Shown: positions 1 to 33,341 of the stretch, piece by piece
How positions within the stretch are numbered: position 1 is the stretch's first letter
Layout of the letters: each line of letters starts with the position of its first letter
Assembly: GCA_043809585.1 (NCBI GenBank)
Contig: JBDROZ010000095.1
Span: 1-33,341, forward strand
Reading direction: 5' to 3'
Source of the DNA: Candidatus Eiseniibacteriota bacterium
GTDB taxonomy: Bacteria; Orphanbacterota; Orphanbacteria; Orphanbacterales; Orphanbacteraceae
Length of the DNA: 33,341 nucleotides
Notes under the pieces: model-generated
Database searches by the model: none
Told to the model about the DNA's origin: nothing
Seen by the model: only the letters and a program-made list of their open reading frames with translations
Made by a program: the position numbers and the translations under genes

Positions 1-150
1 TCGGGAGGGGCCGGGGCATAACCGGGGAGCTCATGGAAGATCTGCGCACCGCAGATTGCGCGCGTCCGGAGAATGGGAGGGTTATGACCCGCCGCACGAC
101 GAGCGTCCCAGCCTGCCCCGATCCCCTCCCTCCTCCGATCCGCCCCCCCC
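1..150 (+). repeat. M1 structured repeat element, copy A (candidate ncRNA / MITE module); the window starts inside or at its 5' end
   Basis: Near-identical to 1871-2020 (about 5 mismatches in 150 nt). Homologous to 9561-9693 and to the reverse complement of 32985-33123. The 5' GGGAGGGGCCGGGGC can pair with the 3' GCCCCGAUCCCCUCCC. No reading frame is conserved across copies. Confidence 0.7.
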
Positions 151-177
151 CGCCGGCATGCTGGCCCCCCGGTCGGG

Positions 178-250
178 CTGAGTGCCGCCCGGTCCTCTGG
201 GCGGTGTATCGAAGCCTGTCCTGAGTAGGACCGAAGGTCCGTATCGAAGG
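178..250 (+). repeat. two tandem REP-like palindromic units (M2a 178-213, M2b 214-250)
   Basis: M2a is CUGAGUGCCGCCCGG-UCCU-CUGGGCGGUGUAUCGAAG and M2b is CCUGUCCUGAGUAGGACC-GAAG-GGUCCGUAUCGAAGG. The same flanks with different, still self-complementary stems recur at 2092-2142, 25129-25168, 32651-32686, 32881-32916 and 32917-32956. Confidence 0.65.
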
Positions 251-274
251 GGGCGGGTGGGGGAAAGTGGGCTA

Positions 275-1675
275 CTACCGAATCACCACCACCCGCTCCG
301 TCACCGTCCGCTCGCCGTCTTCCATCCGCACGAAGTACACACCCGCCGGGGCGTCAATTCCGGAGGAGGTCCGTCCGTCCCAGGTGAGGACACCGGATGC
401 ATCCTTCCCTTCGAGGGCGCGGACGACGCGGCCGCGGATATCGTAGATGGTGACGGGAACGGACGAGGAGGAGGGGAGGGAGTAGCGGAGGCTCACCTCG
501 CCGGTCGTGGGATTGGGCGAAACGAAGAGACCGAAAGCGCGGCTTGGCATTGAGCCCCCCTCCGCGACGGAGGTGTAGACGTCGCACCCCTGGCCGAGCG
601 CGCCAATGAGGAAGGGGCCGTTCGGGTTGTTCTCGGGGAGGCAGGGAGATGCGGCGTCGAGGGAGTAGTCGCCGAGAATCGTCGGTGCTTCCATCCCATC
701 TCGCGGTCCACAAAACACCGGATCCGTGTAGATCGATTGATAGGGCCACTCTCCCGGCGGTATGAGCCCTGAGGTATCCACGTCGCAGTATCTTAAGATG
801 AAGTTACCCCAGCTTTCGTCATAGAGTTCGGCCCCTTCTGGGGCATCGTTTCCCCAAAGGACCGACCAACGGCCCTCATGGGGGGCATCTGGGTTGCTTC
901 CGCAGTATATTCCTCCCCCTCCCCACTCGAGAGCCCGATTCCCCGCGATTGTCGTATGCCGAAACTCGAGGTGAGCCGCATCAAAACCGCTAATGGCAAT
1001 GCCGCCACCCGCGCCGGTAGACAGGTTTCCAATCACGAGACAACTATCGAGGAAAACGGCCGCCCTATGGCCATCGCACGAGATCCCTCCTCCCCCCCAA
1101 CCAGTGTTTCCTGAGATGATCGAACGACGGACCTCCGTTACACCCTTCCAAGCGCGGATCCCCCCGCCCCCACCGGGACCGCTGCATTCTGCGATAAGAC
1201 AGTCATAGACCTTTGTGGATGCGTCCCAGGAGAGGATTCCTCCCCCTACTCCGCTCGTGTACGACGTGCAGCCGACTATTCGACAATTCCGAACCGTGGC
1301 GGCGGCTTCGACCCGAATTCCGCCTCCCCCGTTTGCACTTCCGTTCTGGATGGTCAGGCATTCGACAGTTGCTTCATATCCTTCTCCGTCCACATAGAAC
1401 CCGCGACCCGATTCCTGGCAGTCGATAACGGTGGAATCGGGACCCAAGGCGGATCTGACTACCACGGCCTTTCCGCCGAAGACGATGTCCCTATTCCCCG
1501 CCCCCGTGTAGATCCCGTCATGAAGCAGTACCGTATCTCCCGCCGCCGCGGAGTCGATTCCCGCCTGAATGGTCGGGGCGCTGCCCGTGCTGTCGGGTTG
1601 GATGTGCCATGTGCGGGAGAGGGCGGGAGAAAAAGCCAAGAAAAGCGCAATCAGACTAGCGGCGAGGCGGATCAT
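275..1675 (-). CDS. secreted right-handed parallel beta-helix protein (Gly-rich GGGGI repeats) with C-terminal T9SS/FlgD-Ig-like sorting domain
   Basis: N-terminal signal peptide MIRLAASLIALFLAFSPALS. Repeated GxGGGI/CxxxG beta-helix motifs. C-terminus ...VYFVRMEDGERTVTERVVVIR. GGGAGG RBS 6 nt upstream of the ATG at 1675. TAG stop at 275-277. Confidence 0.85.
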   Translation of the reverse strand: MIRLAASLIALFLAFSPALSRTWHIQPDSTGSAPTIQAGIDSAAAGDTVLLHDGIYTGAGNRDIVFGGKAVVVRSALGPDSTVIDCQESGRGFYVDGEGYEATVECLTIQNGSANGGGGIRVEAAATVRNCRIVGCTSYTSGVGGGILSWDASTKVYDCLIAECSGPGGGGGIRAWKGVTEVRRSIISGNTGWGGGGISCDGHRAAVFLDSCLVIGNLSTGAGGGIAISGFDAAHLEFRHTTIAGNRALEWGGGGIYCGSNPDAPHEGRWSVLWGNDAPEGAELYDESWGNFILRYCDVDTSGLIPPGEWPYQSIYTDPVFCGPRDGMEAPTILGDYSLDAASPCLPENNPNGPFLIGALGQGCDVYTSVAEGGSMPSRAFGLFVSPNPTTGEVSLRYSLPSSSSVPVTIYDIRGRVVRALEGKDASGVLTWDGRTSSGIDAPAGVYFVRMEDGERTVTERVVVIR

Positions 1676-1776: not shown

Positions 1777-1870
1777 GGAGAAACAGAAGCATGCGCCCTC
1801 CGGTTCATTTCCTCCGGCAACTAGGGAGAGTCTCCGGATCTCCTGCGTTCGGCGGGACGGGGAATCGGCA

Positions 1871-2020
1871 TCGGGAGGGGCCGGGGCATAACCGGGGAGC
1901 TCATGGAAGATCTGCGCACCGCAGATTGCGCGCGCCCGGAGAATGGGAGGGTACTCTCCCGCCGCACGACGAGCGTCCCAGTCCGCCCCGATCCCCTCCC
2001 TCCTCCGATCCGCCGCCCCG
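1871..2020 (+). repeat. M1 structured repeat element, copy B
   Basis: Positions 1871-1930 are identical to 1-60. The remainder has 1-2 nt changes per 10 nt, including a hairpin-preserving swap GGGUUAUGACCC to GGGAGGGUACUCUCCC. Confidence 0.75.
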
Positions 2021-2091
2021 CCGATTTCATATCATCGTCATCCTTCTGGAAGCAGGGGATCCAGGAGATCAGAATTCAATCCTCCGCGTTC

Positions 2092-2142
2092 GCCCTTCGA
2101 TACACTGCCCGGAAAGCTCGGCGGCACTCAGGACGAACGGGG
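2092..2142 (-). repeat. REP-like unit M2a in inverted orientation relative to M1 copy B
   Basis: Reverse complement reads CCGUUCGUCCUGAGUGCCGCCGAGC-UUUC-CGGGCAGUGUAUCGAAGGGCG, with the same conserved flanks and a different paired stem. Confidence 0.6.
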
Positions 2143-2437
2143 GGTGGTGGACGCGGCACGAATAACCGATTGCGATCGGGGGCCCGGAAAGGCGAACATC
2201 ATCCCTTCTCCTTCCTCCGAGCGGCAGTCCTTGCTGATCGTTCTGACCCACGGGCGGGTGGCCGCGACAGGGGTCCGCGAGACGCGCAGCCACCAAGCAC
2301 CAGATCCCGATCAACGTCTTGTCATCGAGAGCGAAACGCGCGGTTCACGAATTGCGGACGAAGGAAGTCAAGCGTGCGACTGGCGAGCATCGCAGCGGAC
2401 AGGAGCGGACAGGACCTGCCCGTCCGCGCATTTCATC

Positions 2438-9444: not shown

Positions 9445-9560
9445 TAACGACGAGCTCGCTCCGAATTACTTGGCTTCCTCGAACTCCTCTTCTGCATTCT
9501 GGAATGGTCGTGCTCGTGTGGGATACCCGTCTGGAGGGGGGGGGGGCGGGGGGTCCGGCT

Positions 9561-9693
9561 TTGGGAGGGATGGGGGCATAACCGGGGAGTTGTTAGCATC
9601 TTCCGCGACGCCACCTCTTACGAGGCCGGAGAATGGGAGGGTCCTCTCCCGCCGTGCGACGAGCGTTCAAGTCCGCCCCTCTATCCCTCCCTC
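9561..9693 (+). repeat. M1 structured repeat element, copy C (no adjacent M2 units); preceded by a G10-C-G6 homopolymer tract at 9535-9551
   Basis: GGGAGGGAUGGGGGCAUAACCGGGGAG...CCGGAGAAUGGGAGGGUCCUCUCCCGCCGUGCGACGAGCGU...GCCCCUCUAUCCCUCCC. The closing-stem substitution G to A at the 5' side is matched by C to U on the 3' side, relative to copies A, B and D. Confidence 0.7.
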
Positions 9694-9758
9694 AGCCGGC
9701 CCCCCGCCCCGCCGATGCGCGGAGCCGAGCCGGAAGCTCGGGCAGTGTCCGGCCCCGC

Positions 9759-11270
9759 TCACCTTCTCGTCACCCGGTGTACGTGGAATCCGAAATCGAC
9801 GGGCTGGGTTCTATACTTATGTTCAGCGAAATGGGGCCGGTTTTCCCACGGAATGTCCGGGTACGGGACGCGGTAGCGGGTCAATCTCCAGCCGCCCTTC
9901 TCCTCCATGGCCCGTGCATACTCCATTGCCGGGTTGACGATCTCGGACCTGGGCCTCTCGATGATCCAATCGGCCTGCTTGAAGCTGTAGAGATACGAGG
10001 GCAATCCCTCGACCCGCCTCCGCGCTTCCGGATCGGAGGTTGTGATCTGTCCCACCATCCGGAGGTTGGTATAGAACATGATGGGCAGAGGATTGTGAAA
10101 TGTGAAAACGAAATCGTCCGGACCGGCATGTTCCCTCAGGAACTCGACGATCCCCTCGTTCGGTCCGTCGTAGTCGTGAGTGATCTCATAGAGAAAGGGG
10201 AGAAAGGCGCGCCCGTGAAAGAGAAGAAGTGCGCCGAGCACGGCGAACCCGAGGATCCGCTTTCTTCGGAAGCACGCCACGACCATGAGCCCCGAGAGAA
10301 GAGACAAGAGTGGGATGAGGAACACGGTATACCGTGGATTCGGCCAGAGGAGGTAGGAGACGAGCAGTATGGGGGGAACGAAGAGACACGCCGCCAGATT
10401 CAGAATCCTGCGGTTTTGGCCAAGGAGCGGGTATGCGAGGAGGATGGCGAAAGGGAAAATGTGGTTGTTGTAAGCCGCGAGGTACTCCCCGATCGCGGGA
10501 AAGAAGGACGGGCGGTGAAAGTGCTGAATATGCCGATGAACACGCGCCGGATCGGAGTACAGGAACCACGGCGTGCCCAGAGCGGCGATGCCGATCGTGA
10601 TGGCGGCGAAGCGAAAGAACAGTCTGCGTTCGAACCCGAAGAGGAGAAAGTGGATCCAGAAGCCGAGCAACGTGAAGAGACATGCACTGTTCTGCGCGTA
10701 GAAGAGGAAGATCGCGCCAACAAGGAAGAGAAGGTCGTACCGAAACCGTCCGAGTTTGCGGTAGCCTGCCAGCATGAGAAGGAACCCGAACGGCAGCAGC
10801 CCATAGTACCGACACTGTCGCATGTGCAGAAGGTATGGAGTGTTCAGCGCCAGCAGCGCGGCGGACAAAAGCGCGGTTTTTGAATCCGCCGTGTAGAGCC
10901 GGCCGACCCAATAGAGAAGCAAGATGCCGGCGAGCCCGATCATCGCGAATAGGAACCTTCCTCCGAACGTGGTCGGTCCCCAGATCCGGAAGCCGGCGGC
11001 CGCGAAATAGTGCATCGCCCAGGGCGAAAGCGTCCACACGAGATCGTCGTTGAACTGGTCGCAATTGACCGATACCCCGGGCTCGGTAACGAGGTTTCGT
11101 CCGTCCCACGCCCGGGGAAGCCAGTTGAATCCGTCTTCCCCTGAACCGATTGTCCGGGCGACGAGGGCCGTCTCCGCCTCGTCGACCCAAAAGTAGACGT
11201 TTCCGAGGTTCTTGAAGAGAAGAACCGCTCCGACCACGAGTATCAGCAGAAGAGGACCGATTGTCTTCAT
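9759..11270 (-). CDS. polytopic membrane glycosyltransferase, GT-C fold (ArnT/PMT, GT39/GT83-like)
   Basis: About 12 predicted TM helices after the signal-anchor MKTIGPLLLILVVGAVLLF, then a C-terminal soluble domain. ATG at 11270 has a GGGGAG RBS. The longer ORF to 11324 begins with GTG and no RBS. TGA stop at 9759-9761. Confidence 0.6.
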   Translation of the reverse strand: MKTIGPLLLILVVGAVLLFKNLGNVYFWVDEAETALVARTIGSGEDGFNWLPRAWDGRNLVTEPGVSVNCDQFNDDLVWTLSPWAMHYFAAAGFRIWGPTTFGGRFLFAMIGLAGILLLYWVGRLYTADSKTALLSAALLALNTPYLLHMRQCRYYGLLPFGFLLMLAGYRKLGRFRYDLLFLVGAIFLFYAQNSACLFTLLGFWIHFLLFGFERRLFFRFAAITIGIAALGTPWFLYSDPARVHRHIQHFHRPSFFPAIGEYLAAYNNHIFPFAILLAYPLLGQNRRILNLAACLFVPPILLVSYLLWPNPRYTVFLIPLLSLLSGLMVVACFRRKRILGFAVLGALLLFHGRAFLPFLYEITHDYDGPNEGIVEFLREHAGPDDFVFTFHNPLPIMFYTNLRMVGQITTSDPEARRRVEGLPSYLYSFKQADWIIERPRSEIVNPAMEYARAMEEKGGWRLTRYRVPYPDIPWENRPHFAEHKYRTQPVDFGFHVHRVTRR

Positions 11271-11436
11271 GGCTGCTCCCCGCCGGAGCCTCCGGGACTC
11301 TTCAAGTCGATGATCGGTAGGCACTCCGCAAGGACTTTACCAGAGAACGGCTTGTCTCGGGTGTGTGATCGCGGATCCATGTTGTCATGGGAATCCCGAT
11401 CGGCTCCGCAGCGGGCCCCGACCCCGAATCGCGCAC

Positions 11437-11481
11437 AAATACAAAAAGAAGCCTCGCAGGTTCCGCTATTCCCCGCGAGGC
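11437..11481 (-). terminator. rho-independent terminator downstream of the TPR gene
   Basis: On the minus strand: GCCUCGC-ggggaauagcggaaccu-GCGAGGC followed by UUCUUUUUGUAUUUG. Confidence 0.5.
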
Positions 11482-11617
11482 CTTCACGTCTCCGCTCGCT
11501 ACCCTGGGGTCCTCGCGTCGCCCCGAATCCTTCGGGGCCGTCCCGAAAACCTCGCTGGAATGATACCACATCGAGAGTGATCCGGCAACAGTTTCTTTAC
11601 GAGACAATGACCGAGAA

Positions 11618-20837: not shown

Positions 20838-20949
20838 TCGGATCCTTAGATTCTGTCGCTATGGACCCCATTCTCCAAGTTAGCCATGAGATTCCGTAGC
20901 GAGGTTTCGGATCGCGAACCGGAACCACAGCAGGAATCTCATGGCTGGT

Positions 20950-25067: not shown

Positions 25068-25168
25068 CCGGGGGACACAATATCGGAACGGAGTTAAGTT
25101 TTGTGTCCCCCGGATTCCTACGATTCCGCCTTCGATACACCGGCCAGCTTGGCTGGCCGGCACTCAGG
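25068..25168 (-). repeat. composite repeat: M3 perfect hairpin (25068-25112) + REP-like M2a unit (25129-25168), downstream of thyX
   Basis: CCGGGGGACACAA-20 nt-UUGUGUCCCCCGG is a 13-bp perfect stem. Minus strand reads CCUGAGUGCCGGCCAGC-CAAG-CUGGCCGGUGUAUCGAAGG. This is the same architecture as 32608-32686. Confidence 0.65.
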
Positions 25169-25319
25169 GTGAACGGTGGAGGCAAGCGCGGCACAAACAA
25201 CCGCCTGCGATCGAGATCACGATTAGGCGGACACGCTTTCTCCCCCCTGAGCGGCAGTCTTCGCTGATTGCCTGCAACCACGGACAGGCCCCGCCCGTAC
25301 TCGACCTGCCCGCTGCCTT

Positions 25320-31045: not shown

Positions 31046-31394
31046 AGGGTCGGTTGTTCCGGCAGGGTCTTACCGGGTGCGAGTTCGGACGGGTCCTGTC
31101 GCCGATTGCCCGCTGCAGTGCTCGCCAGTCGCGCCATGTCTTTCTTGATTGCCCGGTGAGAACCGCGCCTTTCGATAGAGGCTCGGTCTTGTTTGTCGGG
31201 ATCGGGCGCTTGGTGGCTGCGCTCCTCGCGGGCCCCCATCGGCGCCACCCGCCCGTGGTTTCAAATGATCGGCAAGGACTACCGACAGGAGGGGGAGGAG
31301 AGGCGTTCGCCTTCCCGGGCCCCCGGTCCCCGACACCACTCGTGCCGCGCTCACCACTCCCCGTTCGTCCCGAGTGTCGCCCTCCCCCCGTCCT

Positions 31395-32607: not shown

Positions 32608-32686
32608 GGGAATGCGGGGGACACGAAACGAGTTCATGTCCCCCGCATTCCGCCGGAGGCCTGTCCTGAGTAGGGCCGGAGGTCCG
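32608..32686 (+). repeat. M3 hairpin (32608-32650, 15-bp perfect stem) + REP-like M2b unit (32651-32686)
   Basis: GGAAUGCGGGGGACA-cgaaacgaguuca-UGUCCCCCGCAUUCC. Then CCUGUCCUGAGUAGGGCC-GGAG-GUCCGUAUCGAAGGG. This is the inverted partner of 32881-32916. Confidence 0.7.
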
Positions 32687-32880
32687 TATCGAAGGGCTCG
32701 GGCGGAACCAGTCCCCCACTGATTTCAAAGTGACTGAGCTCAGATGAGCAACGCTCCGATTCATTCCAAAGTCCCAAGCGCGGTGAGACTAACGAGGGGC
32801 CCGCGGGCCCGGGTGGGCGAACGTCTCTCCCCCCCCCTTTTACGTGTGCGCGTGGTCCCTCGCCTTTCCCCGGTTCGTCC

Positions 32881-32956
32881 CCTTCGAGACAGACCTTCGG
32901 TTCTACTCAGGACAGGCTTCGATACACCGCCCGGCCTCCGGCCGCGGCACTCAGGA
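32881..32956 (-). repeat. REP-like units M2b (32881-32916) and M2a (32917-32956) of repeat copy D
   Basis: Minus strand reads CCUGAGUGCCGCGGCCGG-AGG-CCGGGCGGUGUAUCGAAG then CCUGUCCUGAGUAGAACCGAAGGUCUGUCUCGAAGG. Together with 32651-32686 these form 36-bp imperfect inverted repeats around a 194-nt core. Confidence 0.7.
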
Positions 32957-32984
32957 CGAACGGGGGGGGAATCGGTGGGGCGGT

Positions 32985-33123
32985 GGATCGGAGGAGGGAG
33001 GGGATCGGGGCAGACTGGGACGCTCGTCGTGCTGCGGGAGATAACCCTCCCATTCTCCGGCCTCGTACAGTTAGCGTTGCGGAGGCCGCCAACAACTCCC
33101 CGGTTGTGCCCCGTCCCCTCCCG
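32985..33123 (-). repeat. M1 structured repeat element, copy D
   Basis: Reverse complement reads CGGGAGGGGACGGGGCACAACCGGGGAG...CCGGAGAAUGGGAGGGUUAUCUCCCGCAGCACGACGAGCGUCCCAGUCUGCCCCGAUCCCCUCCCUCCUCCGAUCC. Its 3' half is near-identical to copies A and B. Confidence 0.75.
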
Positions 33124-33275
33124 GTGCCGGTCCGCCGACCCGCCGCGTGCGGAAGACCGACGGCTGTCCCCACTCAACCTTCTACTCCCCCCGGTTCACA
33201 GACAGAAAAGCCCGGCCGGGGATTCCCGGCCGGGCACGATCTCGATCGCGCGCTTCACGCGCGCCCGTTCTTCCC

Positions 33276-33341
33276 TACCGAATCAGCGTCATCCGCTTCG
33301 ACTCGGAGAACTCCCCCGCCTGAAGACGGTAGAAGTACACC
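33276..33341 (-). CDS. 3' end of a gene encoding a protein with T9SS/FlgD-Ig-like C-terminal sorting domain (partial; continues beyond the window)
   Basis: C-terminal translation ...VYFYRLQAGEFSESKRMTLIR* parallels ...VYFVRMEDGERTVTERVVVIR* of the 275-1675 gene. TAG stop at 33276-33278. Confidence 0.6.

Follow-up and report, generated by a model that had tools for sequence, protein, structure and literature searches.

Among the dispersed palindromic intergenic repeats of bacteria, ERIC (~127 bp), Correia, bcr1 (~155 bp, with compensatory changes) and Chunjie are elements of the same kind as the one described here (PMC3184786). In bcr1, a dispersed repeat of the Bacillus cereus group, compensatory changes keep a branched double-stranded structure whose stability varies between copies, and this variation has been interpreted as decay (PMC3184786). 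REPINs, which are inverted REP doublets, are mobile DNA hairpins in which compensatory changes across the hairpin are common (PMC3116915). Because compensatory changes are reported in both REPINs and bcr1, such a pattern is not by itself diagnostic of RNA function. Here we describe M1, a previously undescribed hairpin-forming repeat of ~176 bases that is dispersed between genes in an uncultured Eisenbacteria-like bacterium.

The window, meaning the whole stretch of DNA that was analysed (33,341 nucleotides), comes from an uncultured relative of Candidatus Eisenbacteria whose best protein match is only 84% identical, and represents ordinary chromosome with a gene order common to its relatives. 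It contains four copies of M1. Copy A (1-155, plus strand; core 3-130) has its outer 5′ arm truncated by the window start, copy B (1851-2025, plus strand; core 1873-2000) is a full unit of ~175 nt, and copy D (32971-33144, minus strand; core 32996-33123) lies in inverted orientation. Copy C (9541-9716, plus strand; core 9563-9691) is the most diverged and is the copy under study. The unit length of ~176 nt was obtained from self-BLAST, nhmmer and a covariance model, none of which detects a fifth copy within the window, and the ends of the element are placed to within a few nucleotides. The preliminary description correctly recognized a repeat at copy C and quoted arm sequences that are present in the window as given; its coordinates were off by 2 at each end, and the 128-nt core that it took for the extent of the repeat is too small. 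By self-BLAST copies A and B are 95% identical over 149 nt, and the remaining pairs of copies are 72-84% identical. All four copies are extragenic within 33 kb, copy D alone lying on the opposite strand from the other three. A reading of M1 as a small ORF was rejected, the frame differing between copies.

M1 is a long imperfect palindrome in which a G-rich left arm and a C-rich right arm, each of ~60 nt, pair with one another inward from the outermost GGCGGG/CCCGCC, giving the element terminal inverted repeats (end sequences GGCGGG..GGGAGGGG). The 5′ arm is unable to fold alone because it is G-rich and has no internal complement. Between the arms lie a variable segment of ~36 nt (9590-9625 in copy C, plus strand) and a non-palindromic core of 40 nt (9626-9665 in copy C, plus strand; CCGGAGAATGGGAGGGT..TCTCCCGCCG..CGACGAGCG). 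The 40-nt core is 85-93% identical across all copies and holds a 6-bp GGGAGG/UCUCCC hairpin. The variable segment has sharp boundaries and occurs as an A/B type and a C/D type that are only 35-53% identical, each forming its own, different small hairpin. The two types are 93% alike outside this sharply bounded segment and 53% alike inside it, indicating a mosaic structure. Predicted folds of the copies range from -98.6 to -109.5 kcal/mol (z -3.4 to -5.5), with copy B at -98.6 kcal/mol (z -3.4) and copy C at -109.5 kcal/mol as RNA (z -5.5) and -54.3 as single-stranded DNA (z -4.3). The stems span the entire element, and 89.9% of stem cells are paired compared with 50-60% after partners are slid by 1-3 columns.

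These properties place M1 close to ERIC, Correia/NEMIS, RUP, Chunjie and Nezha, which are likewise non-coding imperfect palindromes of similar size (about 100-240 bp) (PMC3184786). Like ERIC/MITE-type repeats, M1 is extragenic, is present in several copies and in both orientations, can form a long stem-loop on either strand, and is located in plastic regions of the chromosome (PMC3184786). The resemblance to MITEs includes small size, absence of coding capacity, multiple extragenic copies and terminal inverted repeats. Unlike ERIC/MITE-type repeats, however, M1 has no TA or other target-site duplication, has unusually long arms (~60 nt) composed of G-runs and C-runs together with an asymmetric 40-nt core as conserved as the arms, and is found only in one uncultured Eisenbacteria-like lineage. 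Strict membership among MITEs is therefore not established, since none of the three complete copies has a target-site duplication and M1 has no known parent insertion sequence. We consider it probable that M1 is a lineage-specific, non-coding, dispersed palindromic intergenic repeat of ~176 bp belonging to the MITE/ERIC/bcr1 class. This reading draws on the repeat structure, copy number, occurrence in both orientations and extragenic location documented here, as well as on the absence of M1 from relatives and its symmetric folding on both strands.

M1 and REPINs have in common two conserved inverted ends, a less conserved spacer, a hairpin in single-stranded DNA or mRNA, and a lack of target duplications (PMC3116915). 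The arms of M1 are not short palindromes with a conserved 5′ tetranucleotide and so do not qualify as REPs, the 5′ arm being G-rich with no internal complement; this excludes M1 from the REPINs. bcr1 differs from M1 in having 5-bp terminal direct repeats and documented transcription, neither of which is known for M1.

The evidence that first drew attention to RNA structure lies in the closing stem, in which the 5′ arm of copy C (9563-9577, plus strand; GGGAGGGATGGGGGC) faces a 3′ arm (9675-9691, plus strand; GCCCCTCTATCCCTCCC) that is one inserted nucleotide longer than in copies A, B and D. As originally described, copies A, B and D have G:C at pair 8 of this stem (columns 31:146) and copy C has A:U, its changed base A9570 facing T9684 so that pairing is kept. 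A second double change, at columns 33:142, converts the C:G of the other copies to G:U in copy C; it directly adjoins the pair 8 change, in a patch that also has the 1-nt insertion. The third is in the outer stem at columns 16:161, where copy B has U:A, copy C has C:G and copy D has a C.A mismatch. The core changes of copy C form one contiguous patch, with 5′ GCC replaced by ATG and the opposite 3′ GAT by TCTAT, that could be a single event. Template switching in quasi-palindromes can yield clustered complementary changes in one step. The changes between copies A and B in the internal hairpin, previously regarded as pairing-preserving, turn out to be of a different kind. Copies B, C and D have in common the 6-bp GGGAGG/UCUCCC hairpin, and the two substitutions in copy A are both one-sided (CU to GA on the 3′ side) and break two of its pairs, so that the hairpin of copy A survives only via a 3-nt register shift in the G-run and C-run (-8.4 versus -9.0 kcal/mol). 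The difference between A and B in this hairpin is thus a register shift, not covariation. A/B is the youngest pair of copies, and its four stem-column differences are all one-sided and all alter the pairing state.

The stems were analysed over the full unit with a hand-curated structure of 50 pairs in the four copies. Thirty-three pairs are invariant, 3 are changed on both sides, 2 are changed on one side but still paired, and 12 are unpaired in at least one copy, leaving 18 stem cells unpaired in total. In a column-shuffle control, 71 of 500 shuffles reach three double-change pairs, which for four copies is not significant; the observed covariation score is reached by 26 of 500, likewise reported as not significant. 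Four M1 sequences, with only three effectively independent lineages among them, are too few for R-scape.

These counts bear on the alternative that M1 is a structured RNA under RNA-level selection, acting either in cis as an untranslated-region stem-loop or as a multi-copy small RNA. In the cis-acting form, a stem-loop located in a 3′ or 5′ untranslated region could influence how stable an mRNA is or how it is processed, an effect shown for some copies of ERIC and Correia. The small RNA form could combine the conserved core with a variable hairpin. Such selection would fit the one clean change from G:C to A:U and the two further double changes, the pairing that copy C has retained despite ~18% stem divergence, the conserved 40-nt asymmetric core adjoining a hypervariable hairpin, and folding z-scores of -2.4 to -5.5, and RNA-level compensatory changes have a precedent in bcr1 (PMC3184786). 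It is harder to reconcile with the 12 of 50 pairs broken in at least one copy, with the shuffle control, or with the uniformly one-sided differences between A and B. A single compensatory pair, observed in a handful of copies of an inverted repeat, is not sufficient to infer RNA-level selection.

Additional evidence against RNA-level selection comes from the symmetry of the two strands. A G.U mismatch is tolerated only in sense RNA, and an A.C mismatch would read G.U on the opposite strand. The variable mismatch sites of M1 comprise three of the G.U type and seven of the A.C type, and thus have no G.U bias. Two G.U pairs on the sense strand are invariant in all four copies, which does favor an RNA. 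The antisense strand nevertheless folds equally well or better than the sense strand, with sense/antisense minimum free energies of -94.4/-116.4 for copy B, -106.6/-106.7 for copy C and -97.5/-106.6 for copy D, and under the covariance model the reverse strands of the individual copies score 35-43 bits. Because the reverse complement folds as well or better and attains these scores, M1 behaves as a DNA palindrome. Neither the energies nor the mismatch types have the strand specificity of a structured non-coding RNA family.

The positions of the copies relative to neighboring genes are also mixed. Copies A and B are antisense to the genes able to read through them, copy C sits between convergent genes, and copy D is in the sense orientation but 65 nt behind a canonical intrinsic terminator composed of an 11-bp GC hairpin and a T-tract. 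The flanks of the copies have no common promoter-like or terminator-like signal. M1 itself was considered as an intrinsic terminator and rejected, being without a U tract and, in copy D, already following a real terminator. No Rfam family matches, either at the gathering threshold over the whole window or at E up to 10 with copies A, B and C; these searches returned only spurious microRNA-like hairpin matches. M1 therefore differs from a structured RNA in having no consistent context, no promoter or terminator of its own, and no conservation in related taxa, no copy having been found outside the lineage in ~115 kb of relatives or, as the core pattern, in the collections searched. Together these observations make an RNA-level function unlikely, although it is the best surviving of the alternatives to a dispersed DNA repeat. 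The earlier proposal of selection on RNA structure stands in part: the arms have kept their complementarity (89.9% of stem cells paired, with no net loss of pairs in copy C), but the further step to RNA-level selection is unsupported in view of folding on both strands, the lack of G.U bias and the mixed orientation.

A second alternative dispenses with maintenance altogether and views M1 as a neutrally decaying palindromic duplicate in which the compensatory-looking pair is coincidental. The shuffle control (71 of 500), the 18 unpaired stem cells, the small number of effectively independent lineages, and the G-runs and C-runs, which permit slipped pairing after almost any change, are all compatible with decay. 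To set against this, a simulation introduced independent substitutions, with the number of changed stem columns and the fraction of transitions both set to the observed values. Between D and C, 18 stem columns differ, yet both copies keep 44 of 49 pairs intact versus 33 expected, and no run reached 44 (P below 1e-4), although the structure was picked after viewing the sequences and two outer pairs are paired in C only. Double changes across all stems number 4 versus 0.67 expected (P 0.0014), with the qualification that the changes are clustered in one patch and G-runs and C-runs slip readily. In the core alone there are 2 versus 0.16 expected (P about 0.005), a post hoc value from 3 to 4 sequences. 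On the basis of this core value (P about 0.005; post hoc), the simulation suggests that the arms of copy C stay complementary beyond the expectation from independent decay, and at ~18% divergence in its stem columns this copy has no net pair loss. In the 14-pair closing stem, moreover, all four changed columns sit in two mutually facing pairs, which also speaks against decay. We regard purely neutral decay as improbable, more so than selection on an RNA.

The known distribution of M1 is restricted to this lineage. The core pattern GGAGAATGGGAGGGN6CCCGC (19 specified bases) was scanned against genome, metagenome and viral contigs and gave 6, 8 and 1 matches, respectively, most of them coding or due to chance; the coding matches specify GEWEG in glycosyltransferase-like genes. 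A genuine M1 core is absent from the species-representative genome and metagenome contig collections, which contain chance and coding matches only. One match in Thermoanaerobaculia (L003) was rejected, as it lies inside a different, perfect 25-bp hairpin and has in common with M1 the pattern alone. A BLAST against plasmids gave no match. M1 is also absent, by blastn, nhmmer and covariance model, from ~115 kb of relatives, which were fetched via the 5′-nucleotidase gene (84%, 79%, 73%, 72% and 71% protein identity) and to which a homologue (56%) of the secreted type IX secretion (T9SS) sorting-domain protein was added.

The site of copy C can be compared with relatives through an orthologous spacer that runs from the short-chain dehydrogenase (SDR) gene to the terminator of the TPR-protein gene. 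An exact-protein look-up with the SDR protein (GTG start) finds no identical record. In the window this spacer is ~2 kb and contains copy C together with a membrane-protein gene of atypical composition, and in two relatives it is only ~30 nt. Four relatives (SDR protein identity 68-71%) have the spacer without M1, and their spacers are otherwise unalignable; the contig of the nearest relative (84% protein identity) ends 145 nt past the SDR gene. Two relatives have palindromic inserts unrelated to M1 in this spacer. The insert in L015 (8060-8215) is a near-perfect 104-nt hairpin (z -7) preceded by a ~20-nt tandem repeat, and that in L025 (2936-3181) has inverted ends of 28 nt that are 93% complementary, together with a perfect direct repeat of 46 nt. 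The SDR-TPR spacer thus looks like a hot spot for palindromic elements in this phylum.

At the other border of the spacer, a minus-strand hairpin with a T-tract after it, together with a GCTACCCTGGG motif, is found 3′ of the TPR-protein gene in all relatives (window 11440-11510, minus strand; L015 8215-8285; L019 12335-12405; L024 10270-10340; L025 3190-3260). Its stem covaries, with CCCGG/CCGGG in the relatives and GCGAGG/CCTCGC in the window. This hairpin is probably the intrinsic terminator of the TPR gene with its 3′ untranslated region.

The genes of the window include a sulfatase, a histidine kinase, the 5′-nucleotidase, the SDR, an ArsP-family membrane protein, Band 7 proteins, an M14 peptidase, two radical SAM enzymes, an aldehyde dehydrogenase, a homoserine dehydrogenase, a cystathionine-type enzyme, an MFS transporter and a transaldolase. 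REPINs are mobilised by RAYT transposases, and no transposase, integrase or RAYT gene is present within the window. Two genes are the sole outliers in composition. The gene between copies A and B (275-1675, minus strand), encoding the secreted protein with a T9SS sorting domain, has a GC3 of 0.685, and the gene abutting copy C (9759-11324, minus strand), encoding a multi-pass membrane protein with no Pfam match, has a GC3 of 0.743; the remaining 14 of 16 genes have values of 0.86-0.94. The membrane-protein gene is absent from the same spot in relatives, and both outliers are probably recent acquisitions. Since three copies of M1 adjoin these two genes of atypical GC3, M1 occupies plastic spots beside probably acquired genes. 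A short tandem repeat (GTGGGAT)n at 1694-1725 lies just upstream of the start of the T9SS-domain gene, and the only sigma-70-like promoter match of this region (1776-1747, minus strand) adjoins it.

This association raises the question of whether M1 serves the acquisition of genes. One version holds that M1 is a functional folded element, consisting of the conserved 40-nt core and an exchangeable hairpin module, that acts as a recombination or integration site for single foreign genes or as a mobile structured RNA. What speaks for the first of these options is that one gene of atypical GC3 lies between direct copies that are 95% identical and that another such gene adjoins a third copy; overall we give this version little credence, about as much as neutral decay. 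Integron attC sites such as the Vibrio VCRs are imperfect palindromes of ~60-140 nt that are homogeneous within a genome and conserve structure above sequence. M1 and attC sites are both imperfect palindromes beside genes of atypical composition. Identity with attC was rejected: the 5′ side of M1 reads GCATAAC or GCACAAC (one mismatch to RYYYAAC) and no GTTRRRY is present 3′, and the window has neither an integrase nor a co-oriented cassette array, copy D being inverted and the neighbors being syntenic core genes. Least probable of all is that M1 is a recombination substrate bordering acquired genes, either as a folded single-stranded site for a site-specific recombinase or through Campbell-type homology, in which a circular gene-plus-M1 unit could integrate by single crossover and leave direct repeats; the A/B direct repeats around a single atypical gene, the second atypical gene, which copy C abuts and which lies within ~2 kb missing from this spot in relatives, the location of A, B and C downstream of minus-strand genes in the same relative orientation, and the conserved ends and variable center of the imperfect palindrome are in its favor, and against it are the absence of the attC core sites RYYYAAC and GTTRRRY, the lack of an integrase within the window, the opposite orientation of copy D, and the sulfatase gene beside copy B, which is a syntenic core gene and not a cassette.

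Other repeats occur in the same region. A second family, of 45-50 nt, has units at 165-214 (plus), 211-260 (plus), 2095-2144 (minus), 25129-25180 (minus), 31340-31381 (plus), 32656-32705 (plus), 32880-32920 (minus) and 32917-32967 (minus), with conserved flanks ..GTCCTGAGT(G/A) and (T)GTATCGAAGG. At its center the sequence of a hairpin varies and the fold is kept, as in GACC-GAAG-GTCC and CCGGCCAGC-CAA-GCTGGCCGG, and tandem long-plus-short dimers of these units adjoin M1 copies A and D. The family looks like a REP-type element (GTAG plus palindrome), and a REP description fits it better than it fits M1. No Rfam entry matches the family, and a hammerhead-like identity was rejected for misfit at the core positions as well as for this lack of an Rfam match. 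A repeat of ~300 nt with copies 71-72% identical continues from three of the 45-50-nt units (2120-2430, plus; 31078-31381, minus; 25129-25268, plus) and lies shortly 3′ of the sulfatase and the transaldolase gene, oppositely oriented at the two. A pair of similar GC-rich hairpins (GGGGGACA...TGTCCCCC) occurs at 25070-25111 and 32610-32650, each 5-20 nt from a 45-50-nt unit, and a separate self-palindrome occupies 20882-20946.

If M1 is a dispersed palindromic repeat of the MITE/ERIC/bcr1 class, its mobility and the manner in which complementarity is maintained, both of which we infer, may be pictured as follows. Copies would be generated through transposition in trans, or through recombination from a small set of master copies, would insert into extragenic DNA in either orientation, and would afterwards decay. 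The complementarity of the arms would be maintained at the level of the element, and not via host selection on an RNA, if propagation is restricted to copies with two ends that continue to match each other, as a DNA hairpin or a pair of terminal repeats. Alternatively, template switching or gene conversion between the arms of the quasi-palindrome might introduce clustered complementary changes in one step. In either case the complementarity of the arms would be maintained by element propagation or DNA-level correction. Several observations stand against this reading. A consistent target-site duplication is lacking at the three complete copies, TTC abutting both ends of copy B only; the window has no transposase, integrase or RAYT gene; two sense-strand G.U pairs are invariant; and there are four copies only. 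The 40-nt non-palindromic core is in addition as conserved as the arms, which a purely selfish terminal-repeat model does not predict.

The window starts (1-3) inside copy A and ends (33277-33341) inside the conserved sorting domain at the C-terminus of another T9SS protein. The window thus probably represents a whole contig, with the assembly broken at repeats on both sides, and more, highly similar M1 copies would therefore be present elsewhere in the genome; extrapolating from their density here, the total may run to tens or hundreds. Since the window begins inside copy A, M1-type repeats probably break assemblies of this lineage. DNA-level maintenance of a hairpin or terminal-repeat pair predicts the same compensatory pattern as selection on RNA. 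Were the RNA reading true, M1 would represent a new structured RNA, present in several copies, from a phylum without cultured members. As the evidence stands, M1 adds a new family to the well-known palindromic intergenic repeats of bacteria.
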